Virus record (IMG/VR): IMGVR_UViG_3300020044_000898
Coordinates: 1-24,337 of that record
From: a virus
Lineage: Duplodnaviria; Caudoviricetes
Direction: 5' to 3' (one strand)
DNA length: 24,337 nucleotides
The notes below the pieces were generated by a model that saw nothing but the letters and a program-made list of their open reading frames with translations, was not told the DNA's origin and made no database searches. Made by a program: the position numbers and the translations under genes. This document shows positions 3,561 through 16,421 of the stretch, piece after piece (position 1 is the stretch's first letter; each line of letters starts with the position of its first letter).

Positions 3561-4063
3561 TGCTTTCACTATTTTCAACTCTTGGGGGTCTGCTGATCTC
3601 CGGCCTTCCCAAACTGCTGGAATACTTCCAAAACAAGGCCGACCAAAAGCACGAGCTTGCGCTGGCTGGTATCCAGACCGAACGGGAACTGCAACTGGCC
3701 GCTGCTGGGTTTGCTGCCCAAGCCCGTGTGGAGGAGATTCGCACTGAGCAGGTGGCAATGGAGACCGATGCCCGGATGACTGAGGCGGCGCTTGCCCATG
3801 ACGAGAAAGTGCTTGAGAAGGCCAGCAAGTGGGTTGCCAACTACGTGGGCACTGTGCGCCCCACCGTGACCTACATCTTCGTGCTGGAGCTGGTGGCAAT
3901 CAACGCCTTCATGGCGGTCTACCTGTGGAACCATCCCCACCTGATCCAGAATATTGACGATGTCATCAAGTACGCAGACCTGATCTTCTCCAGCGACGAG
4001 ATGGCGATGCTGGGTGGCATCATCGGTTTCTGGTTCGGTAGCCGCCAGTGGAGCAAGAAATGA
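3560..4063 (+). CDS. Holin, 3TM GTA-holin-like family
   Basis: N-terminal hydrophobic segment, W...VRP motif before a TM, and C-terminal IIGFWFGSR; upstream of the endolysin. Confidence 0.7.
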   Translation: MLSLFSTLGGLLISGLPKLLEYFQNKADQKHELALAGIQTERELQLAAAGFAAQARVEEIRTEQVAMETDARMTEAALAHDEKVLEKASKWVANYVGTVRPTVTYIFVLELVAINAFMAVYLWNHPHLIQNIDDVIKYADLIFSSDEMAMLGGIIGFWFGSRQWSKK

Positions 4064-4752
4064 TTGGGGTTTACGCCATAGTCAACACATCGAGCCAAAA
4101 GGTTTATGTGGGCAGCAGCAAGAACGTCAATAAGCGGTTCTTGTGCCATGCTTCGTTCCTTAGAAATGGTAAGCATCACTGCGCCCACCTTCAAAGCTCT
4201 TTTGATTTAAACGGCTCAAAAGCGTTTCAGTTCCGCGTCCTTGCAGAATGCGCAACGCGAGAAGAGGCTCAGGAATTGGAGCAGGCTATGCTCGACATTT
4301 GGCATGCAGATTTTTACAACGCATCCAAAAGAGCGGACCATCTTCATCGGCTTGGAAGGCCGCTAAACGAAGTTACGAAACAAAAAATTGGCGACAAGAA
4401 CGCAGGCGCATTTAGATCGCCAGAGCAGCGAAAACTAATCTCAGATTCACTGAAAAAACGCTACCAAGAGGGCATGCAAAGCCCGCAACTTGGAAGAACG
4501 CACAGCGACGAGGCAAAGGCCAAGATTAGAGCAAAACGCGCCCTTCAAGCCCCTGCAAACCTTGGAAGGGTGGCGTCTCAAGAAACCCGCTTGAAACAGT
4601 CATTGGCGAAAAAGGGTAACCGTTGTCACGCGAAAACTGTATGCACGGATACGGCGTGCTTTTTTGGACTTGATGTCGCGGCGCAGCACTACGAAGTTTC
4701 AAAACCCACTTTCCGCAGAATGATGCAACGAAATGGTTGGAGCTTTTTGTGA
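4060..4752 (+). CDS. Free-standing GIY-YIG homing endonuclease with NUMOD3-like repeats
   Basis: GVY-x10-YVG with conserved R (KRF), E (ELEQ) and N (FYN) as in I-TevI. NUMOD3-like GRPLNEVTKQKI, GRTHSDEAKAKI and GRVASQETRLKQS. Start taken as ATG 4060, overlapping the holin TGA. Confidence 0.9.
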   Translation: MIGVYAIVNTSSQKVYVGSSKNVNKRFLCHASFLRNGKHHCAHLQSSFDLNGSKAFQFRVLAECATREEAQELEQAMLDIWHADFYNASKRADHLHRLGRPLNEVTKQKIGDKNAGAFRSPEQRKLISDSLKKRYQEGMQSPQLGRTHSDEAKAKIRAKRALQAPANLGRVASQETRLKQSLAKKGNRCHAKTVCTDTACFFGLDVAAQHYEVSKPTFRRMMQRNGWSFL

Positions 4753-5255
4753 AAACTTCGGACGCCGGTTTGCACTTGATGCACAAATTTGAGGGGTTTC
4801 GTAACCGTCCGTACTTATGCCCGGCCCACATTTGGACTTGCGGTTGGGGAACCGTCCTTTACCAAGAACAGATCAGGCTCCCTATGGTGCGCGTCGAGGG
4901 CAAAGAAGTTCCGATGATTCGCAAAGAGTACCCGCTACGTTTGGAGGATAACCGTGTCTGGTCCAAAGAAGAATTGGCTGCGATGTTCAAAAATGACCTC
5001 GCTGGCTTTGAGCGTTCTGTTTTACGACTTGTTCCCGGCGTACTTGGGCATCAGGGCCGGTTTGACGCTTTGGTATGTCTGGCCTATAACATAGGCGCGG
5101 GCAATCTCCAGCGGTCCACCATCCGGATGAAGGCCAACCGTGGGGACTGGGAGGGGGCGGCAGAGGCTTTTAGGGCTTGGACCAAGGGTGGGGGTAAGGT
5201 TTTGCCGGGGCTTGTCAAGCGCCGAGAGGCCGAAATTGCGCTGTTTTTGAGTTAA
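4749..5255 (+). CDS. Endolysin, GH24 phage lysozyme
   Basis: E-x8-C-x5-T catalytic triad (EGFRNRPYLCPAHIWT), FDALV..AYNIG and LPGLVKRREAE. GTG start at 4749 after GGAG; no SAR segment. Confidence 0.92.
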   Translation: MKTSDAGLHLMHKFEGFRNRPYLCPAHIWTCGWGTVLYQEQIRLPMVRVEGKEVPMIRKEYPLRLEDNRVWSKEELAAMFKNDLAGFERSVLRLVPGVLGHQGRFDALVCLAYNIGAGNLQRSTIRMKANRGDWEGAAEAFRAWTKGGGKVLPGLVKRREAEIALFLS

Positions 5256-5341: not shown

Positions 5342-5977
5342 ATGACGACAGCAAGTGTAATGACCTACGACTCGTTGGTTGAAAACATCCAGTCCTATCT
5401 GGAGCGCACGGACGCAGCCACTCTTGACAAGATCCCGCTGTTTATCATGCTGGCCGAGCAAACCATTGCCAGCCAGATCAAGTTTCTCGGGAACCTGATA
5501 GTCAACACCAGCACCTTGGTGGCAAGCCAACCCGTTATTGACAAGCCTGCACGCTGGCACAAAACAGTCTCAATGAACATCACGGTTGCGGGTGTTCGCC
5601 AGCCTGTTTTGCTTCGCAAGTATGAGTACATGCGGGAATATTGGCCCAATGCCACGGCAACGGATGTACCCAAGTTCTATTGCGACTACGACTACACCCA
5701 CTGGCTGGTCGCCCCAACTCCCGATTTGGCATACACCTTTGAGGTGATCTATTACGAGCGTGTGCAGCCTTTGGACTCAACCAATCAAGTCAACTGGTTC
5801 ACTCAATACGCTCCTCAAGCCCTGCTGTATGGCTCACTTTTACAAGCCATGCCGTTCCTCAAGAACGACAGCAGGATTCCAATTTGGCAACAGCAGTACC
5901 AAGGCATCATGCAAGCATTGATGGTCGAGGACAAGCTTCGGATTGCCGATAGACAAGCAATGGCGGTGGACTCATGA
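5342..5977 (+). CDS. Head-tail adaptor / tail tubular protein A-like
   Basis: TYDSLVENIQSYLER...FIMLAE, PKFY, VAPTPD.AY..EVIYY and NW....PQALLYGSL; size and position typical of podophage adaptors. Confidence 0.75.
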   Translation: MTTASVMTYDSLVENIQSYLERTDAATLDKIPLFIMLAEQTIASQIKFLGNLIVNTSTLVASQPVIDKPARWHKTVSMNITVAGVRQPVLLRKYEYMREYWPNATATDVPKFYCDYDYTHWLVAPTPDLAYTFEVIYYERVQPLDSTNQVNWFTQYAPQALLYGSLLQAMPFLKNDSRIPIWQQQYQGIMQALMVEDKLRIADRQAMAVDS

Positions 5978-7200
5978 GCTTTAACAGCCCCTTTAGCGGT
6001 AACGTTGTCCAACCGACAGACGTTAGCTTCGTTTCATACACAATTTCAGCAAACACCCAGCTACAGTGGCCCATCAACAGTGAGCCAAACGTAGACTACG
6101 CCGCGCGGATCATTCAGGTCACGGCGACAGCAGGTAGCCTGAATCTGATCATGCCTCCGGCCAACCAAGCTTCGGTCGGTCAAGATGCTCTGATTCGTAA
6201 CGTGGGGTCTAACACGTTCACCGTGTTGGACTATGCCGGGAATACGATCATTGCCGTTGCCGCTGGTCAGGCTCAGTACATCTACATCACCAGCAACGCA
6301 ACCACCGCAGGCACATGGGGCATCATTGCGTTCGGCACAGGAACCTCATCCTCGGACGCTGCAACCCTTGCTGGCGCTGGCTTGGTGGCGCAATCGACCA
6401 CATTGAATCAAAGCCACCCATCGTCTTACATCGCAGACGGCGACACCTTTGTGGCCTCAGATCGTGCCCAGATGCACATCTGGACTGGCGGCGCAGGAAC
6501 CATCACTCTTCCGCTGGTGACCGATGTCGGTGACAACTGGTTCATCATGGTTCGCAATGCTGGCTCAGGGACTTTGACAGTCAACACCTCGGCGGGGCAG
6601 CTTTTTGACAACAACACAACAAAGCTGTTTCAGCCAAGTGATTCGGCGTTCATTGTCTGCACCGGAACCGACTACCTCTCAGTGGGTTATGGTCAGGGAA
6701 CCGACTTCTCATTCTCTGCGCTGTCTTATGCAGTTGTGTCGGGAACATACACCCTGACTGCTAACGAGGCATCCAACACCATTCAGGAGATCACCGGAAC
6801 CCTGACTGGGGCTGTGACGATTGTTTACCCGCCTGTGGTGAACTTGTACGTCATCAGCAACCAAACATCCGCAGGCGGCAACACATTGACCGTCAAAACT
6901 GCAACGGGTCTTGGTGTGGTAGTTCCTCCGTCCTCGCAAGTCACCGTGATTTGCGATGGCGTGAACTTCTACAACGCTAACACGACTCAGATTGGCGCAA
7001 CAGCCATCTCCCTGATTTCCGGATCTGCGGCATCGCCTGCAATTAACTTTATTGCGCAAACCAACACTGGCATGTTCTACAGCACCAACACTGTGGCGTT
7101 CTCTGTCATCGGTACGCAGCGACTTTCTGTGACGGTCAACGGCATTACCGTGAATGGTGTTGGCACGTTTATCGGCGGCATTACTGGGGGCACTTTCTAA
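5974..7200 (+). CDS. Virion structural protein, tail fibre/appendage-like
   Basis: Three similar beta-rich units (..xxP....G....xxN.G..TxTV) and a C-terminal GSAASPAINF..QTNTGMF motif seen in fibres; lies between adaptor and nozzle. Confidence 0.6.
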   Translation: MSFNSPFSGNVVQPTDVSFVSYTISANTQLQWPINSEPNVDYAARIIQVTATAGSLNLIMPPANQASVGQDALIRNVGSNTFTVLDYAGNTIIAVAAGQAQYIYITSNATTAGTWGIIAFGTGTSSSDAATLAGAGLVAQSTTLNQSHPSSYIADGDTFVASDRAQMHIWTGGAGTITLPLVTDVGDNWFIMVRNAGSGTLTVNTSAGQLFDNNTTKLFQPSDSAFIVCTGTDYLSVGYGQGTDFSFSALSYAVVSGTYTLTANEASNTIQEITGTLTGAVTIVYPPVVNLYVISNQTSAGGNTLTVKTATGLGVVVPPSSQVTVICDGVNFYNANTTQIGATAISLISGSAASPAINFIAQTNTGMFYSTNTVAFSVIGTQRLSVTVNGITVNGVGTFIGGITGGTF

Positions 7201-10200
7201 TGACCGAAAAAGTTTTTGCCCTTGACACGCAACCCGGCATTCAACGGGACGGTACTGTCTTCGACAAGATTTTTTACACTGACGGTCAATGGGTTCGTTT
7301 CCAGCGTGGGCGACCCAGAAAGATGCTTGGATACTCTCAGATCACTGATCAACTGGCTGGCCCCTCACGGGGCATTTTTCAAGATTCAACATCGGGCTTG
7401 AGCCGCATCTACAGCGGTTTTGAAAATGGCTTGCAAGTTGTCTCTTTGAACAACGTTGGCGTTGGCTCATCAACATCCGACTTCACGTTTGGCGGCGAGA
7501 TATTGACCCTGTCGTCAATCATCTCTGGCGGCACAAACTACACAAACGGCACGTACCAAAATATTCCCTTGACTACCGTAACTGGCATTGGAACTGGCGC
7601 AACCGCCAACATGACCGTTTCCGGAAATGCGGTGACATCGGTCACTTTGGTCAATGGTGGCAACGGGTACTCGTACCTTGACGCGCTGTCGGTGGCTCCA
7701 TCATCCATTGGTAATGGAATTGAGACCACCTCATCGTTGGTTGGGGGCACTTTGTATGGCAACGGAAGCTACCTGTCGGTTCCTTTGATCTACGGCTCTG
7801 GATCACCAGCAGCGGGTGGATTGGGGTCTGGTGCAACAGCCAACATCACTGTGGTTGGTAATGCGGTGACAAGCGTGTCAATTCAAAACGCTGGCATCGG
7901 GTACACCGTCAATGACGTTTTGACTTGCCAGAGCAACTTCATTGGCGGTGGAAGCGGCATCATTAGCTCCTACGGTGGCTTAGTTGGTGGTCAGTTCTAC
8001 ACCTCTGGCGTTTACGCAAACGTGGCGTTTACTGGTGGTTCGGGGTCTGGGGCCAAGGGGACCGTCACCGTTGGAACCGACTCAATTGACTATGTTTACA
8101 ACATCGTCAGCGGAGGTAATTACACCAACGGAAGCTTTTCCAATGTCCCGCTCACAGGCGGGTCTGGAACTGGGGCGACTGCCATCATCACCGTGTCTGG
8201 CGGCAACGTCATTGACGTGACCATGGTCTACGGTGGCGACAACTACGTTGCCAACGACGTTCTCTCAGCAACTGCGGCAAGCATTGGAAACGGCATCGCC
8301 ACCATCTCGGTGACCAACATTGGCTCTGGCTACCCTGATGGCGTTTACTCCAACGTTCCACTGACCAACGTGTCTGGAACCGGCTCTCTTGCTTTGGCGA
8401 CCATCACCATCTCTGGTGGCACTGTGGTTTCATGCTCCATATCCTATGCAGGTATTGGCTACGCAGTCACTGACACCTTGACGGCAAGCAACGCCAACCT
8501 TGGTGGGGCTGGATCTGGATTCCAAGCGCAACCTGCAACCATCAGCGCCTCGGCTGGATTTCAGTGTCAGGTCAACTCTGTGACCACTGGATCTGTGACC
8601 AAAGTGGTCTTGACCAGCGACGGGCTAGGCTATGCCGCAGGCGACATCCTGAGTGCTCCTGCTGACGACATTGGAAAGAAAAGCGGCATCATTGGCGCAC
8701 TTGGCGGCATTACAGGGGGTGGTTTTTACACAAGCTCCACCACGGCAACGGGAGTTGGCTCCATCTCCGGAACTGTGATGAACATCAGTTCGGTGTCCAA
8801 CGGCTCTTACGTGACCGGTCAAACCATCACTGGAATAGGTGTATCGCCTGACACCACCATTACCTCGTATGGAACGCCAACAGCCACTTTAGCAACCGTG
8901 GTGATCACTGGAACAAGCGGGGAATTCAGTTGCACCTCAACCACTTTGGCGGTTGGCAACACGGTGACCATCAGCGGGACGTTTGGGGGTACTGGAAGCA
9001 TCACTGGTTACGTTGACCCAACCTCTTATCTGATCTCGGACACCAACGGCATCACCACATTCAGGTTGACCACCATGTCTGGCGCGGCAGTGGTCACAAC
9101 AGCCGGTACGCCAACAGGACTGACCTACAAGCTTTACGGTGGAACTGGTTCCTATAACGTCAGCAAATCTCAGACGGTAACCTCAACCACTCTTTCTGGC
9201 CTTGGCATCTTCAGAAACACTCCACTGACTGGCGGGTCTGGATCTGGAGCCACAGCCAATGTGACGATCACGGGCGGGGTGGTGTCAAACGTTACGTTGG
9301 TTGATCCGGGGGTTAATTACGCCACCGGCGACAACTTAACCGCTTCTTTTGCGGGTGTAACCAACGGCGTAGCAAGTGGAACTGCGCTTGTCGGTGGCAG
9401 TTTGTACACCAACGGATCATTTGCAAGTGTGCCACTTACGGGCGGCACGGGCGCTGGAGCCGTGGCAACAATTACCGTTTCAGGAAACACTGTTGTTGGT
9501 ATTGTGCTGACAAGCCCCGGCACGGGTTACACGGTGGGAGACACTCTTACCTGCGCTGCCAGCTATATTGGAAATGGTGTTGATGGCGCACCAATTTCCA
9601 CCTTTGGAGCCAACTACCCCGATGGGTCTTATGGCAACGTTCCGCTGACGGGCGGCACTGGTAAGTTTGCGACGGCAAACATCACCATCACGGTTGGCGC
9701 TGTGACGGCTTTCACAATCAACAGCCGTGGTGTTGGCTATACGGTGGGCGACACGCTGTCTTTCAGCGCCGCACTAATTGGCGGGAGTACCAACGGTATT
9801 GGGACTCTTGGAGCCATCACCGCAGGCTCAAACTACACCAACGGCGTGTGGACAAACGTTCCTTTGACTGGTGGCGCAGGCACTGGCGCAACAGCTCAAA
9901 TCACTGTGGCTGGTAACGTGGTGACCGCAGTCACCATCACCAGCAAGGGTAACAACTATGCGGTGTCAGATGCCATGTCTTGCCTTGCAAAGTACATTGG
10001 CAGCGGCATCAGCGCCGCTGGAGCTATCAATGCTGGATCTGGGTACACGGGCAACGGCATACTAACTATTGGCACGATTGTCGGAGGAAACTCTTACACC
10101 AACGGCCTTTACGCTGGGGTGGCGGTTACGAGCCTGACTGGCTCTGGCGCTGGTGCTATTGCAACGGTTACCGTATCAGGAGGATCTGTTACCTCTGTTT

Positions 10201-12317
10201 CTTTTGTCAGCGCACAAGACAGGGGTTACGGATACGCTGCGAGTGATTCATTGACAGTTGATTCATCTCTAATTGGTGGCACGGGCACAGGGTTTTCTTT
10301 TCCTGTTGCCATGGTTGGCCCGGCTACCTTCACGAATGTTGCGCTGATTGGTGGAACTGGCAGTCTTGCGACTGCCAATATTGTGGTTGATGGCGGCAAA
10401 GTATCTTCCTTCACCTTGGTTGATCGAGGCATCGGTTTTACCGCTGGCAACTTGATGTCGGCAAATGCTTCCGACATTGGTGGCACGGGTTCAGGATTTT
10501 CTTTCCCCGTGACGGCAGTTTATGCCAGCAGCGGATTTTCTGTGCCTGTTGCGACCGTGGTGACAAGTTCGGGCTTCACCAGCGTTATCACCGCCCCCTA
10601 CGCAAGTTCGGGGTTCCAATTTAACGTGGCATCTCTTGGCAGCGCAGGAGGCTTTGGCATTCCCGTGACCTCTGTCTTGTCAAGCAACGGTTTTCAGTTT
10701 GCTGTTTTGGCAACCACGGCAAGCTCAGGCTTTCAGTTCAATGTTGGATCAATTTACGCAAGCTCAGGCTTTTCAATTGAAGTGGAGTCTTCAGAAAACG
10801 ACTTTGAGCAGAATGTAGACAACTTGTGGCAGTTGGACACCCTCTACAACGTAGCAGGCGGGGTCAATACGGTGTTGGCGCATCCGGGGCAAAACCTCAA
10901 TCAAATTGACAGCGCCATCAACACCAATGTGTTTTACGGCCCAGTCACCAGCACGACCATGGCCCCATTGAAAGACACCGGAGGAGCGAACCCCACCAAC
11001 AACTTCATTGAGGTCAGTGGTGGTGTGGTGGCCCTTCACCCGTATGTCTTTGTCTATGGCAATGCGGGGTTGATCAAAAACTGCTCTGCTGGAGATCCCA
11101 CTGACTGGAACAGCGCCGATGCCAACGAGGTCAACGTGGCCGCTGGCAAGATCATCAAGGGCTTACCCGTCAGGGGTGGCTCTAACTCGCCTTCTGGGCT
11201 GTTCTGGAGCCTTGATAGCCTGATTCGCGTGTCCTACATCGGTGGCGTGGGAACTCCAGCGCAATACTGGCGCTACGACATCATCTCCAGCCAGTCTTCC
11301 ATCATGTCGTCGCAGTGCGTGATTGAGTACGATGGAATTTACTACTGGATCGGAACCGACCGATTCTTGATGTACAACGGCGTTGTTCAGGAGATCCCGA
11401 ACAACATGAACCAGAACTACTTCTTCGACAACCTGAACTACGATCAGCGTCAAAAGGTGTGGGCGACCAAGGTTCCACGGTTTGGTGAGGTGTGGTGGTT
11501 CTATCCTCGCGGCGACTCGACAGAGTGCAACGATGCCATCATTTACAACATCAGGGAAAAGACTTGGTATGACGCTGGCACGGCTTTGGGGTCGCAGCGG
11601 TCAGCCGGGTATTTCTCGCAGGTATTTCGCTACCCCGTGATCTCCTCTAACGAGGTGAACGCAACTGGCGGGATGTATACCGCTTCAATCAGCGCCGAAG
11701 GGGCGGGGTATACGGACGGTGTATATCCTTACATTGACGCTGTCGGTGGCCCCGGAACGGGTGCAACCTTGACCTTAACGGTTTCCGGTGGCAAGGTCAT
11801 CAAACTCGTGGTGAACAACAAGGGTACGGGCTACACCGCTGGCAACGGCTTTACGGCCTCCATCCCCGGCTCACCTTCGGCCAACTTTGCTGGAATCGTT
11901 GACAGCACCTGCGACTTTGTCTCCCTCTGGAGGCACGAGACCGGCACAGATCAGGTCTACGGTGTCAATTCAAACGCCATTGAGAGCTACTTTGAGACCA
12001 ATGACGTGGGTTGGGTATCGGGTGGACCCTCTCAAGCCGCTCCGGTCGGAGAGAATAAGTGGCTGCACATTGAGCGCGTTGAGCCTGACTTCATTCAGAA
12101 CGGGGAGATGAGCCTTTACATCATCAGCCGCCCCTACGCGCAGTCGCAAGACATCATCAGCAGCCCCTATCCATTTGACCCCGACACCAATAAAATTGAT
12201 ATGCGTGAGCAGGGGCGAGAGCTTCGCCTGCGCTTTGTCAGCAACGTGACGGGTGGCGATTATCAGGTCGGCAGGGTGATCGTCAACGTTGACTTTGGAG
12301 ATGTCCGTGGTTACTAA
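7200..12317 (+). CDS. Tail nozzle / DNA stabilization protein (P22 gp10 / tubular B-like) with a giant nested-domain insertion
   Basis: N-terminal PGIQRDGT...WVRFQRGRPRKM and a C-terminal propeller-like region (YYWIGTDRFLMYNG, FGEVWWFYP, IERVEPDF, REQGRELRLRF) flank a Gly/Thr-rich insertion at 7497-10793. Confidence 0.75.
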   Translation: MTEKVFALDTQPGIQRDGTVFDKIFYTDGQWVRFQRGRPRKMLGYSQITDQLAGPSRGIFQDSTSGLSRIYSGFENGLQVVSLNNVGVGSSTSDFTFGGEILTLSSIISGGTNYTNGTYQNIPLTTVTGIGTGATANMTVSGNAVTSVTLVNGGNGYSYLDALSVAPSSIGNGIETTSSLVGGTLYGNGSYLSVPLIYGSGSPAAGGLGSGATANITVVGNAVTSVSIQNAGIGYTVNDVLTCQSNFIGGGSGIISSYGGLVGGQFYTSGVYANVAFTGGSGSGAKGTVTVGTDSIDYVYNIVSGGNYTNGSFSNVPLTGGSGTGATAIITVSGGNVIDVTMVYGGDNYVANDVLSATAASIGNGIATISVTNIGSGYPDGVYSNVPLTNVSGTGSLALATITISGGTVVSCSISYAGIGYAVTDTLTASNANLGGAGSGFQAQPATISASAGFQCQVNSVTTGSVTKVVLTSDGLGYAAGDILSAPADDIGKKSGIIGALGGITGGGFYTSSTTATGVGSISGTVMNISSVSNGSYVTGQTITGIGVSPDTTITSYGTPTATLATVVITGTSGEFSCTSTTLAVGNTVTISGTFGGTGSITGYVDPTSYLISDTNGITTFRLTTMSGAAVVTTAGTPTGLTYKLYGGTGSYNVSKSQTVTSTTLSGLGIFRNTPLTGGSGSGATANVTITGGVVSNVTLVDPGVNYATGDNLTASFAGVTNGVASGTALVGGSLYTNGSFASVPLTGGTGAGAVATITVSGNTVVGIVLTSPGTGYTVGDTLTCAASYIGNGVDGAPISTFGANYPDGSYGNVPLTGGTGKFATANITITVGAVTAFTINSRGVGYTVGDTLSFSAALIGGSTNGIGTLGAITAGSNYTNGVWTNVPLTGGAGTGATAQITVAGNVVTAVTITSKGNNYAVSDAMSCLAKYIGSGISAAGAINAGSGYTGNGILTIGTIVGGNSYTNGLYAGVAVTSLTGSGAGAIATVTVSGGSVTSVSFVSAQDRGYGYAASDSLTVDSSLIGGTGTGFSFPVAMVGPATFTNVALIGGTGSLATANIVVDGGKVSSFTLVDRGIGFTAGNLMSANASDIGGTGSGFSFPVTAVYASSGFSVPVATVVTSSGFTSVITAPYASSGFQFNVASLGSAGGFGIPVTSVLSSNGFQFAVLATTASSGFQFNVGSIYASSGFSIEVESSENDFEQNVDNLWQLDTLYNVAGGVNTVLAHPGQNLNQIDSAINTNVFYGPVTSTTMAPLKDTGGANPTNNFIEVSGGVVALHPYVFVYGNAGLIKNCSAGDPTDWNSADANEVNVAAGKIIKGLPVRGGSNSPSGLFWSLDSLIRVSYIGGVGTPAQYWRYDIISSQSSIMSSQCVIEYDGIYYWIGTDRFLMYNGVVQEIPNNMNQNYFFDNLNYDQRQKVWATKVPRFGEVWWFYPRGDSTECNDAIIYNIREKTWYDAGTALGSQRSAGYFSQVFRYPVISSNEVNATGGMYTASISAEGAGYTDGVYPYIDAVGGPGTGATLTLTVSGGKVIKLVVNNKGTGYTAGNGFTASIPGSPSANFAGIVDSTCDFVSLWRHETGTDQVYGVNSNAIESYFETNDVGWVSGGPSQAAPVGENKWLHIERVEPDFIQNGEMSLYIISRPYAQSQDIISSPYPFDPDTNKIDMREQGRELRLRFVSNVTGGDYQVGRVIVNVDFGDVRGY
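7497..10520 (+). repeat. Eleven copies of a ~70-85-aa beta-module, several interrupted by insertions
   Basis: Consensus GG..YTNG.Y.NVPLTGG.G.GATA.ITV.G..V..V......G.GY...D.L......IG; a twelfth copy lies at ~11667-11909. Confidence 0.9.
10521..10793 (+). repeat. Seven tandem 13-aa (39-nt) xxSSGFxxxVxxx units
   Basis: YASSGFSVPVATV / VTSSGFTSVITAP / YASSGFQFNVASL / GSAGGFGIPVTSV / LSSNGFQFAVLAT / TASSGFQFNVGSI / YASSGFSIEVESS. Confidence 0.92.
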
Positions 12318-12580: not shown

Positions 12581-15337
12581 ATGAACGACGCCGCCGTCAG
12601 TCAAGATACGTGGGATTATTATGCAAAAGTTGTGGAAGATGAAAAAGCAGCCAATATTCAACGTGAACGCGATGAAGCATACGCAAGATATAAAGCTCCC
12701 GCTGGGGCTTTTAAAATTCCTGACTTTAAACCCGACCCAAGAACGGGCGGATTTCTCTACAAAGGTCATGGTGGTCAACCGGTCTATTACGACGGACAAA
12801 TTATTGGCTATGATTTTGTCCAACACGATATTCAGCCGGGGATAATGTCCCACTTTACTACGGATTTGGAAGGAAACGTAGTAAAGCACCAGTATTCACC
12901 AGAAGGGGAAGATCTCACCTTTAAAGACATAGTGAAGATGAGTGTACCGTTCCTATTGAACGTTATTCCCGGCGCAGGAGCTGCTCTTGGTTCTATTTTT
13001 GCTCCAACCGCTCAAGTGGCAACTCAAGCGGTAATTGGGAATGCGCTAATCAGTGGAGTTATGGCAGAGGCAAATGGCGGGGACTTTTTAGAAGGTGCTG
13101 TTGCCGGAGGGCTTAGCTCCTACGCAAGCACCACACTCACTCCATCTTTATCAGATGCACTAGGTGGTGGCACTGCGGGTGAAATTGTTTCCAAAGCAAT
13201 TGTTGGCGGCGTAAGGTCAGAACTATCGGGTGGTGATTTTTCTACTGGTGCGCTTACCAGCGCAACCAATTCTGTAATTTCCACAGCCTTGGATCGAATT
13301 CCACAGTTTGAAGGTTTAACCGATGACCAGCAATCTGCCATTGTTAATTTGGCAACCACCGCCGCACTTTCGGGAAAATTGACTGAGCTTGATATAGTAA
13401 ATTCGCTTTTTTCGTCAGTTATTAAAACAGCACAGACAGGTCAAGCTCCATCATCTAAAGATTTTGAAAATAAAAACTTTGCGCCCGGAGGTGCTGATTA
13501 CATTGAAATGAGTTCAAGAGTTTCCGGTGGTGGCGACGATGATCTGGTTAGTGGTGGTGAAGCCGCAGATACTGACGTAATTGATGATGAAACGGCAAGC
13601 TCTATAGGTGGCGGCAATATAGATGGAGGCGGCGGCTCTAGCGATAGCTTTATAGATTCGATTGTTCTTGCGCCAGACGAGGAGATTGAAGGCACTCGTA
13701 TACGTGAAGATGGCTCAGAAAGTGCAACGATCAAAAGAGTCAACCCAGATGACCCAGATGAGGTTGTCTACTATGAAGCAGTAAAAGATCCCGTAACTGG
13801 CGAAATTTCTTACGAGTGGGGTGGTCCAAGTTTTGATGAAGATAACAACATAATTCAAGAGGGATCAACAACAATATCTAGTGGGTCAAAGCCATCTTGG
13901 ACGTGGAATTCAGAAAAAGACAGTTCCTCGTCAACTCAAGAAAACGAAACTCAAACCGGATCACAAGATCAGGGTGGTGTTGATGTTGATGAAGGTGTAC
14001 GTACAGGTCAATGGCAAACCGTTGGTGATAATCGCATTTTCATTCACGATGACGGCACTGCAACCGTTATCAATCCAGCGGCTAACTATGAAGGAACTCT
14101 TAACCGTGAAAAGGTTGAGGAGTTAATTGATCTTGGACTTCTGCAACCTGCACTTTCCAACCTTTCAACTCCTACAGATGAGCAAACCACAAGTGTAGAA
14201 CCTGAAGATGATGAAGTTGTAGTTACAGCTCCAAGACCTGAAGATGATGAAGTTGTAGTTACAGCCCCAAGAATTGAGCCTGAAGATGAAATTCCAGAAA
14301 TAGTCGTTACAGCTCCAAGACCTGAAGATGATGAAGTTGTAGTTACAGCCCCAAGACCTGAACCTGAAGATGAAATTCCAGAAATAGTCGTTACAGCCCC
14401 AAGGCCTGAACCTGAAGATGAAATTCCAGAAATTGTAATTACAGCTCCAAGGCCTGAACCTGAAGATGATGAGGTGGTCGTTACAGCTCCAAGGCCCGAA
14501 GAAGAAGTTCCCGTAGAGGAAGAAAAAACAGGCGGTGGCGGTGGTGGTGGCGGTGGCGGTGGTGGTCCAACAACCATAAAGCCAAGGGGTGTTTTACCCA
14601 CTTCAAGTGATCCCAATTCACAGGCCAGCCCCTCGCAAAAAGGCGTGCTTCCCGCAGGCAGTCCTTTTCAGCAGCCATATCTCAACATTGGATTATCAAA
14701 AGACAAGTTCATCGACCCCTTGTCTCGGCTTTATCAAATTCAACAAGCAACCCAACAAGGTGGAGGAGGCAACTTGTCTCAAATGATGTTCCAACAATTC
14801 AATCCTTCGGCATACCAATCAACTGCTGAAGAAACCGAGGCTCCTGATATGGATGACTCCTACTACAACTATGGGGACGCAAATGATTCATACGATGCAA
14901 ACCCTATAGACCCTTACACCCCCAGTCCTTACAGCCCATCTCCTTACGCCATGGGATATGAATCTCAGGCGCTTGGCGCAGCTCAGGGCGGGGCAATCAT
15001 GGCGACCCCATTGATGGCAAGGGGCGGTAAGACTCTGCCCCTGAACGTCAACGGAGTCTTGCCAACGGTCAGCCAAGGGCGAGAGAACTTCAAGCATGGC
15101 AAACACGTTGCTGGCGATGGAGATGGTCAGTCGGACGACATCCCCGCATGGCTGGCCGATGGCGAGTTTGTTTTCCCCGCTGACGTTGTGTCTGCGCTTG
15201 GAAACGGCTCAACCAAGGCCGGAACAGATAAACTATACGAAATGATGCACAGCATCCGTCAGCACGCAAGATCGGCAAAGCCCAAAGACTTGCCGCCACC
15301 AGCCAAAAAGTCCCCTCTGGACTACTTGAAAGCATAA
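12581..15337 (+). CDS. Large acidic internal virion / ejection protein
   Basis: AAGGA SD. Gly/Ala hydrophobic helices (GGDFLEGAVAGG), acidic low-complexity middle, repeat array, Gly12, and C-terminal GDGDGQSDDIPAWLADGEFV domain; follows the nozzle. Confidence 0.7.
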   Translation: MNDAAVSQDTWDYYAKVVEDEKAANIQRERDEAYARYKAPAGAFKIPDFKPDPRTGGFLYKGHGGQPVYYDGQIIGYDFVQHDIQPGIMSHFTTDLEGNVVKHQYSPEGEDLTFKDIVKMSVPFLLNVIPGAGAALGSIFAPTAQVATQAVIGNALISGVMAEANGGDFLEGAVAGGLSSYASTTLTPSLSDALGGGTAGEIVSKAIVGGVRSELSGGDFSTGALTSATNSVISTALDRIPQFEGLTDDQQSAIVNLATTAALSGKLTELDIVNSLFSSVIKTAQTGQAPSSKDFENKNFAPGGADYIEMSSRVSGGGDDDLVSGGEAADTDVIDDETASSIGGGNIDGGGGSSDSFIDSIVLAPDEEIEGTRIREDGSESATIKRVNPDDPDEVVYYEAVKDPVTGEISYEWGGPSFDEDNNIIQEGSTTISSGSKPSWTWNSEKDSSSSTQENETQTGSQDQGGVDVDEGVRTGQWQTVGDNRIFIHDDGTATVINPAANYEGTLNREKVEELIDLGLLQPALSNLSTPTDEQTTSVEPEDDEVVVTAPRPEDDEVVVTAPRIEPEDEIPEIVVTAPRPEDDEVVVTAPRPEPEDEIPEIVVTAPRPEPEDEIPEIVITAPRPEPEDDEVVVTAPRPEEEVPVEEEKTGGGGGGGGGGGGPTTIKPRGVLPTSSDPNSQASPSQKGVLPAGSPFQQPYLNIGLSKDKFIDPLSRLYQIQQATQQGGGGNLSQMMFQQFNPSAYQSTAEETEAPDMDDSYYNYGDANDSYDANPIDPYTPSPYSPSPYAMGYESQALGAAQGGAIMATPLMARGGKTLPLNVNGVLPTVSQGRENFKHGKHVAGDGDGQSDDIPAWLADGEFVFPADVVSALGNGSTKAGTDKLYEMMHSIRQHARSAKPKDLPPPAKKSPLDYLKA
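14198..14494 (+). repeat. Seven in-frame PED(D/EIP)E(V/I)V(V/I)TAPR repeats
   Basis: Near-identical DNA units of 36-48 nt (cctgaagatga...ttacagcyccaag), followed by a 12-Gly run at 14531-14566. Confidence 0.95.
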
Positions 15338-15347
15338 GGAGAAAACC

Positions 15348-16421
15348 ATGGGTTCAATATTCCAAGGCGGTCCACTGCCAGATGTAAAAACAACGACCTC
15401 GGTCAACCCCAATGCGCCAAGCTACTACACCGACTACATGTCGGCGCTGTCAAGGGCTGGGACGCAACAATTGGGGCTTCCATCTAGCCAGTTGGTGGCA
15501 GGCTTTAGCCCTTTGCAGCAGCAGGCGTTTGCGCAGCTTCCCAATGTGTCTGGCTCCTACAAACCTACACTGACTTCTGCCATAAACACGGCTTCTCAGG
15601 GTGCGGCAGGAATCACCCCGCAGGGCATTGAATCCATGCTCAACCCGTACACCAGCAACGTGGTGGACGAGATGGCTCGGTTGACCAACCAGAACGTCAA
15701 GAGAAACGTCATTCCACAGCTCAAGGGCGCATTTGTGGGTTCTGGCGGCTTGGGTGGTCAACGCTACGCCAACGCTGCTGGTCAAACCATGGGCGACATT
15801 CAGTCCACGTTGACTGGGCAGCAGCAGGGCGCTTTGTCTACCGGGTATTCGGAGGCTTTGCGGTCAGCTCTGGCAAACGCCCAGCAAAAGACCAACGCCG
15901 CACAAATTCAAGGCAGTTTGGCGCAACAGCAGCAGGCTCTAGGATTGGCTGGCATCAACGCTCAACTGGGTGCTGGTGCTCAACAGCAGGCTCTTGAACA
16001 GGCCCGTATCAACGCGCCCCTGCAAAACGCAATGAACGCCTCAGCCCTCATGCGAGGCTACAACGTGCCCATCGGGACGACAGAGACGTTTGTTGGCCCC
16101 AAAGCTGGCGTGTATGCGCAATCCCCGCTGTCTCAGATTGCAGGCTCTGGGGCTTTGGTCAATGCTTTGTTGGGTGGCAAGGGTTTACAAGGACTTCTCA
16201 AAGGTGTCTCAATAGGAGGTGGAGGGGGTGGTAGAACATTTGGCGGTCCAAACACAAACTACGAATCAGTTTTTGATCCCGGCTTTATGCCAAACCCAGA
16301 TTACGAACACGTTTTTGATCCCGGAATTTCTATTGATTACGATCAATATAACTTTAATCCGGGATATGACGACTACTACCAAAATGAAGGATACGATGAC
16401 TATTACGACCCAGAAGGTTAA
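15348..16421 (+). CDS. Ejection / DNA pilot-like protein
   Basis: AGGAG SD. Q/A/G-rich, with VAGFSPLQQQAF, LNPY..NVVD and SPLSQIAG motifs; Tyr/Asp-rich tail. Confidence 0.65.
   Translation: MGSIFQGGPLPDVKTTTSVNPNAPSYYTDYMSALSRAGTQQLGLPSSQLVAGFSPLQQQAFAQLPNVSGSYKPTLTSAINTASQGAAGITPQGIESMLNPYTSNVVDEMARLTNQNVKRNVIPQLKGAFVGSGGLGGQRYANAAGQTMGDIQSTLTGQQQGALSTGYSEALRSALANAQQKTNAAQIQGSLAQQQQALGLAGINAQLGAGAQQQALEQARINAPLQNAMNASALMRGYNVPIGTTETFVGPKAGVYAQSPLSQIAGSGALVNALLGGKGLQGLLKGVSIGGGGGGRTFGGPNTNYESVFDPGFMPNPDYEHVFDPGISIDYDQYNFNPGYDDYYQNEGYDDYYDPEG

Follow-up and report, generated by a model that had tools for sequence, protein, structure and literature searches.

The tail hub protein of a podophage carries 11 copies of a six-stranded beta module that are probably nested in each other's loops, and seven stacked strands at the end of the insert would finish seven open modules in reverse. 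The hub gene is located at 7200..12317 on the plus strand of the window, which is the whole 24,337-nucleotide stretch of viral DNA that was analyzed (IMG/VR record IMGVR_UViG_3300020044_000898). All hub features given below are on the same strand. The reading of the insert as nested beta-domains is supported, and the completion of the modules in reverse order, as a modelled pairing, is strongly supported by computation.

The 1,705-aa product is assigned as a podophage tail hub/nozzle from its homology to PDB entries, PHROG families, and phage RW. The hub core of ~520 aa is composed of aa 1-99, 1199-~1485, and ~1570-1705. In the PDB search, the hub was matched by 9NWI chain Y (513 aa, E 3e-9) and by the VP1 nozzle gp16 (8ZKK, E 5e-8). 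In PHROG, the C-terminal part of the hub corresponds to phrog_3287, and the repeats match fibre, baseplate, and virion proteins. The Pfam search of the 1,705-aa hub gave 0 hits, and no sheath family was found for it in Pfam or PHROG. Among cultured phages, the nearest relatives are Caulobacter phages, for example RW, whose insert-free hub of 510 aa aligns to the window hub on either side of the insert. RW gp68 100-395 aligns to window hub 1202-1507 (47%), RW gp68 372-509 aligns to window hub 1565-1705 (36%), and the N-termini align too. When the inserts are subtracted from the window hub, a core of ~510 aa is complete in this alignment.

The hub gene sits between the adaptor and ejection-protein genes, as podophage hubs do. 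An SU10-type adaptor gene is found upstream (5342..5977, plus strand; PF24175, E 1e-23), and a DNA ejection protein gene is found downstream (15348..16421, plus strand; phrog_4287, E 4e-9) in a podophage-type gene order; an SLT protein is also encoded downstream. 9NWI is one of the entries for phage Pa223, whose tail hub gp59 has 513 residues and is described as a hexamer of interrupted beta-propellers with an outward-facing fibre-attachment loop at 354-387 (bioRxiv 2025.06.11.659172). Pa223 gp59 (9NWI), VP1 gp16 (8ZKK), and RW gp68 share with the window hub a homologous core of ~510-520 aa and the gene order of adaptor, fibre-like gene, hub, and ejection proteins. These three hubs are bare, whereas the window hub has an extra 1,100 aa inserted around residue 99 and, close to where the fibre-attachment loop would lie, one more module. 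This latter module, M12, is complete and occupies a second hub loop at 11667..11903 (bounds approximate). Its C and E tokens lie at aa 1519 and 1542, and it is absent from RW gp68. Hub aa 1457 aligns to gp59 340, and M12 is by extrapolation placed near the fibre-attachment loop of Pa223 gp59.

Three other features were observed in the same window. A 616-aa fibre/spike-like protein is encoded at 46-1896, and a segment of ~60 aa is duplicated within it. A GIY-YIG/NUMOD3 homing endonuclease at 4048-4752 lies within the lysis cluster and overlaps the lysozyme start. A putative ejection protein (ORF 12581-15337) contains seven acidic repeats at 14204-14500, each ending in E[VI]V[VI]TAPR, which may resemble TonB boxes. 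At least three motifs of this type within one ORF were found in 0 of 86 loci.

The insert covers aa 100-1198 (~1,100 residues) and is composed of 11 copies of a Gly/Thr-rich module of ~84 aa with six beta strands. The layout of the module is A-[GG.NY.NG]-B-[GG.G.GA]-C-hairpin-D-[G.GY..GD]-E-[.IGG.G.G]-F. Seven modules end before the last strand (F), and seven strands of 13 aa each are stacked at the end of the insert. The C, E, and F strands were called as tokens by position-specific profiles trained on homologues. The insert holds 11 C, 11 E, and 11 F tokens in the order CECECCECEFFECECECECECEFCEFFFFFFFF. Closer 2 had a profile score of only 0.0 and was recovered through the rule of a 13-residue period. 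The strand order is a valid bracket string, as were 0.1% of 200,000 shuffled orders, which is a weak null.

By the strand profiles, the open modules M1 (7497..7712; strands A-E, outermost) and M2 (7713..7946) come first. The first half of M3 (A-C, 7947..8078) follows, and its C-D hairpin hosts a first side branch. This branch is made of the open module M4 (8079..8288) and, at its tip, the complete module M5 (8289..8543). An internal strand at 8544..8582 would complete M4, and the double F after M5 is kept in 79/79 stack-bearing homologues. M4 had been said in an earlier note on this DNA to be closed right after its complete guest, which agrees with this assignment. The second half of M3 (D-E, 8583..8675) is left open. 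M6 (8676..9356) is open as well, with its A-B loop split by a second side branch of 156 aa (8739..9206). In this branch, a "TG" beta-barrel (8739-8876 plus 9135-9206) hosts a "TNG" domain (8877-9134), which is E1-FCCH-like by language-model features (0.93).

The profiles then give the open modules M7 (9357-9572), M8 (9573-9782), and M9 (9783-10004). M10 is complete and forms the tip of the stem (10005-10049 plus 10317-10520), and its A-B loop hosts the complete guest M11 (10050-10316). Homologues of about 1,520 aa do not have the M11 guest. The closing strands c1-c7, 13 aa each, follow at 10521..10793, with M9, M8, M7, M6, M3, M2, and M1 as their respective putative partners. The deepest path in this parse runs through nine modules, hub>M1>M2>M3>M6>M7>M8>M9>M10>M11, and the overall shape is an 8-module stem that ends in a tip module and bears two side branches, M4>M5 and TG>TNG.

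The earlier note's coordinates hold, with a few corrections, for the modules, for the seven that are truncated, and for the stack of seven 13-aa strands. M7 starts at about 9357 rather than 9354. The truncated modules do mostly end in IG as described, while M6 ends in SFAG. The innermost module closes at 10520 as claimed; this module is M10, which is interrupted by its complete guest M11. A monomeric rod of ~8 domains had been proposed; the 8-module stem is retained, and the plain rod is replaced by a branched tree. The DNA copies of the module are mostly 60-77% alike, and no array was reported by Tandem Repeats Finder on the hub gene; judged from the sequence, the module copies are old. The insert is not an assembly artefact because the same architecture occurs in 74/305 homologues from several sources.

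The number of stacked strands was compared with the number of open modules in 305 hubs with both anchors, collected from protein searches and viral scans; 6 more hubs have one anchor missing. The terminal run of F strands is 7+1 in 74 of the 305 hubs (10 or 11 modules) and 3+1 in 5 of them (6 modules). The remaining 226 hubs have no stack: 157 are without the module, and 69 have complete modules only (one module in 53 hubs; two in 15 hubs, where the D-E loop holds the guest; and five serial modules in a single hub). The strand count had been expected to track the count of open modules, and it does, at 7:7 (74), 3:3 (5), and stack absent (226), with few independent count levels (0, 3, and 7 in this family) because many rows are close relatives. 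The automatic tokens are exactly balanced in 59 of the 79 stack-bearing proteins and off by 1-2 in the other 20. Those of the 20 that were checked by eye (P0067-72, P0069, and P0076) are detector misses at interrupted loops. The longest relatives, P0069 and P0076 (1,994 aa), have the 7:7 balance and, in addition, further foreign domains within M1, M8, and M9. The module-free hubs that were inspected join the DFT/F motif directly to N.F..NLWQFD, which agrees with the direct junction predicted for short homologues.

The 13-aa repeats were never found without open modules, either in the 305 hubs or in a profile search with the stack. This profile gave 18 matches among 1.84 billion representatives, of which 2 are nested hubs and 16 are unrelated, mostly short tandem repeats; no genuine stack homologue outside nested hubs was found among these representatives. 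Smaller nests were seen by eye in other hub families, with 1:1 in P0243, P0244, P0245, P0257, and P0262, and 2:2 in P0260, P0247, and P0286. The carriers belong to the P22-gp10-like hubs (PF11134), apart from two further hub-like proteins in which this module also occurs. When the closer slots of the 3-class and the 7-class were matched by BLOSUM score, no clear mapping emerged. A tree of the 210-aa core (269 tips, two of them fragments wrongly labelled module-free) is poorly resolved with scattered architectures, and the number of origins can therefore not be counted from it.

The module is also used outside this nest. In P0242-P0263 (PF11134, P22 gp10-like hubs), P0247, P0286, and P0277 (sheath family), it is serial or nested 1-2 deep in the same loops. 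In the FlgE hook proteins P0264-P0266, P0270, P0272, and P0278, one of which is named Polynucleobacter sp., it occurs in about three serial copies.

The pairing order was analyzed with mean-field couplings learnt on 466 intact modules. These couplings contain the C-D hairpin and antiparallel A-F pairs. Each open module was scored against each closer, the scores were averaged over 58 seven-class proteins, and all 5,040 orders were ranked. For these 58 proteins, which represent one ancestral arrangement, and with the middle pair M6-c4 being the same in the reverse and forward orders, the reverse order ranks 1, 1, 1, 16, and 12 of 5,040 (10, 20, 40, 80, and all 528 couplings), and the forward order ranks 1,044-2,866. 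When all 87 stack-bearing proteins were left out of the training, the reverse order ranks 4, 1, 9, 8, and 5. The best of 100 controls with shuffled training reached rank 56. The window protein alone is not decisive, with rank 30-2,368 for reverse and 3,576-5,023 for forward. Part of the coupling signal may be co-inheritance rather than contact; a pairing is implied either way.

AlphaFold2 was used to model the insert and the stack. The closing strands are ordered only when the open modules are present, with pLDDT 79-90 versus 33-58. The stack alone is predicted as coil (pLDDT 33-58), and the 13-aa repeats do not form the solenoid of their own that had been named as a refuter. One structural alignment, which is weak, puts closer 2 in module 8, and this is the single pairing read from the model. 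The reverse-order pairing of strands 1-7 claimed earlier is supported by coupling ranks from 1st to 16th of 5,040 and by this one read-out (c2-M8). The single-chain model of the insert is well ordered with pTM 0.47, and because of this pTM a straight rod is not confidently predicted.

A route to this architecture can be proposed. In an intact module, the couplings suggest that strand A pairs antiparallel with the last strand F, which would bring both ends next to each other, and a module could therefore enter a loop without breaking its host. Inserted domains tend to have termini close together in the survey of PMC13114784. A copy placed in the E-F loop of another module would convert the host into an A-E body with a delayed F strand. 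Repeated E-F insertion would produce the stem from M1 to the tip, and insertions in other loops would produce the side branches M4>M5 and TG>TNG. Growth would thus proceed as whole modules enter permissive loops, with the stem using E-F and the branches A-B, C-D, and D-E. An exclusively distal position of the insertion loops was rejected, as homologues insert in the D-E loop too. Folding would go from the tip back towards the hub. If the hub is a hexamer like Pa223 gp59, six single-chain arms per virion would be expected, and each arm could reach up to roughly 30-35 nm if straight, at 13 extended residues per level. As to its role, an optional spacer or adhesion arm that extends the reach to the host surface is the mildly preferred proposal. 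It is favoured because the arm is dispensable in the family, its length is stepwise, no catalytic family was found, and exposed virion proteins and FlgE hooks carry the module.

For shape and role, the main competing explanation is a bush, compact or flexible, into which the nested domains would pack and which would armour or stabilize the tail. We regard it as rather unlikely, though a serious candidate. The pTM of 0.47, the two side branches, and the Gly-rich joints are in its favour, as is the lack of a catalytic or lectin family in Pfam (0 hits for the hub). The comparable insert SI3 is elongated yet flexible between its subdomains (PMC10895346). Against this packing, two chain crossings and a 13-residue returning strand per level would favour end-to-end stacking, the length varies stepwise among relatives, and the module is found on exposed fibre, baseplate, and sheath proteins.

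A strand swap is improbable. Here the closers would complete the open modules of a neighbouring hub subunit, and the six inserts would form a cross-linked collar instead of free arms. The hub type is hexameric in Pa223 gp59, recursively inserted HABAS domains exchange secondary-structure elements (PMC11515920), and both the count balance and the couplings are blind to the difference between pairing within and between chains. On the other side, the lone chain is predicted by AlphaFold2 to be well ordered, and c1 follows directly after the last strand of M10 itself. A self-contained unit would also fit the nesting of the module at several sites and in further hub families, and its serial copies in FlgE hooks. 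Serial five-stranded domains followed by a solenoid or linker of 13-aa repeats, with equal counts by chance, are largely refuted and very improbable: truncated modules might fold anyway, as AlphaFold2 is not a stability test, and this hub family has just three count levels, but the stack is absent in 226/226 hubs without open modules and is predicted as coil alone, no free-standing repeat family was found in the 1.84 billion representatives, the reverse order is near the top of 5,040, and c2 was placed in M8 by the model.

Beside the nested modules closed by returning strands, a second self-nest was found in the same hub family in a different loop. Inside the TG domain, n N-halves of the TNG domain come first and an equal number of C-halves follows. 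The balance of N and C halves was found in 47/47 proteins (40 by pattern and 7 by eye), with n=3 in 32, n=4 in 1, and n=5 in 14. For n=1, the TNG domain is intact, as in the window. The carriers are P0073 (about aa 205-635), P0079, P0081, P0085, P0088, P0096, P0110, P0114, and relatives. In an order test by similarity mirroring for n=5, with only 10 proteins parsed, the reverse order ranks 59 and the forward order 69 of 120. The middle slot is ambiguous when n=3 is mapped onto n=5. The single n=4 protein is without N2 and c4 of the n=5 class, which form a mirror pair; this is one protein, in which N1 is ahead by one point.

The principle of nesting is already known, as SI3 has been solved and the contractile sheaths have a "Russian doll" arrangement; no precedent with a nozzle as host was found in the literature covered. 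SI3 of the cyanobacterial RNA polymerase is the showcase of a 2026 ECOD survey, with six-level nesting (PMC13114784). It has eight SBHMs, several of which are built from distant parts of the chain, and is 150 A long (PMC10895346). Its domains are described as recursively inserted, and the mechanism of insertion is stated there to be unclear (PMC11515920). In SI3 as in the window insert, one small beta domain is inserted into itself and grows from one host loop, to form an elongated appendage with the chain running out and back and with branch points. The hosts differ, being the trigger loop of RNA polymerase beta' for SI3 and a virion hub for the window insert, and the latter is for this reason not a member of the SI3 type. 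Six levels are reported for SI3, and nine are deduced here. Unlike in SI3, the return path in the window insert is one 13-aa strand per level, and the copy number differs among close relatives. No SBHM or HABAS match for the module was among the fold-search matches listed.

The sheath proteins T4 gp18 and diffocin CD1363 are the ones described with the "Russian doll" domain arrangement (PMC6088184). Contractile sheaths nest 2-4 different domains, whereas the window hub would nest one domain in itself, nine deep, on a short tail. The module weakly resembles the barrel of T4 gp18 99-188, a fold match below the confident range. In the chaperone-usher pili, an incomplete beta domain is finished by donor-strand complementation with a strand from the N-terminus of the next subunit, and the polymer is rod-shaped. 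The window insert is alike in that a strand from elsewhere would complete a beta domain and a rod would be built. The strand comes from the next subunit of the polymer in the pili, whereas the window closers are likely the same chain returning. Background on T7 is given in PMC11784390. In a literature search that covered few subscription journals, neither a nested nozzle nor a phage structural protein with recursive insertion was found.

Deep self-nesting of one domain is rare in print, and the solved examples to date come mainly from cyanobacterial RNA polymerase. Such nested proteins escape Pfam (0 hits here) and are easily misread as tandem repeats. In protein design, the architecture could serve as a template for long spacers whose two ends both lie at the base. 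The hub family provides a graded natural series of 0, 1, 2, 5 serial, 6, 10, and 11 modules together with a second independent nest, and the folding of a chain with seven unfinished domains and the origin of self-insertions are therefore testable.

Taken jointly, the two nests can be read as one history, to which we give an even chance. The hubs of freshwater podophages would have twice evolved recursive self-insertion to lengthen an appendage, once with a module closed by single strands (0, 3, or 7 open levels, nine at the tip) and once with an unrelated FCCH-like domain (N^n C^n, n = 1, 3, 4, and 5). Each virion would then carry six doubly anchored single-chain rods of tunable length, which would serve as receptor-seeking arms without trimerisation. 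If this joint reading is true, the nesting is deeper than the six levels in the 2026 survey of classified domains, and the hubs are a natural series for tests of the folding and origin of such proteins. For phage biology, the finding suggests that a long appendage can be made from a loop of the hub itself, and not from a separate trimeric fibre.
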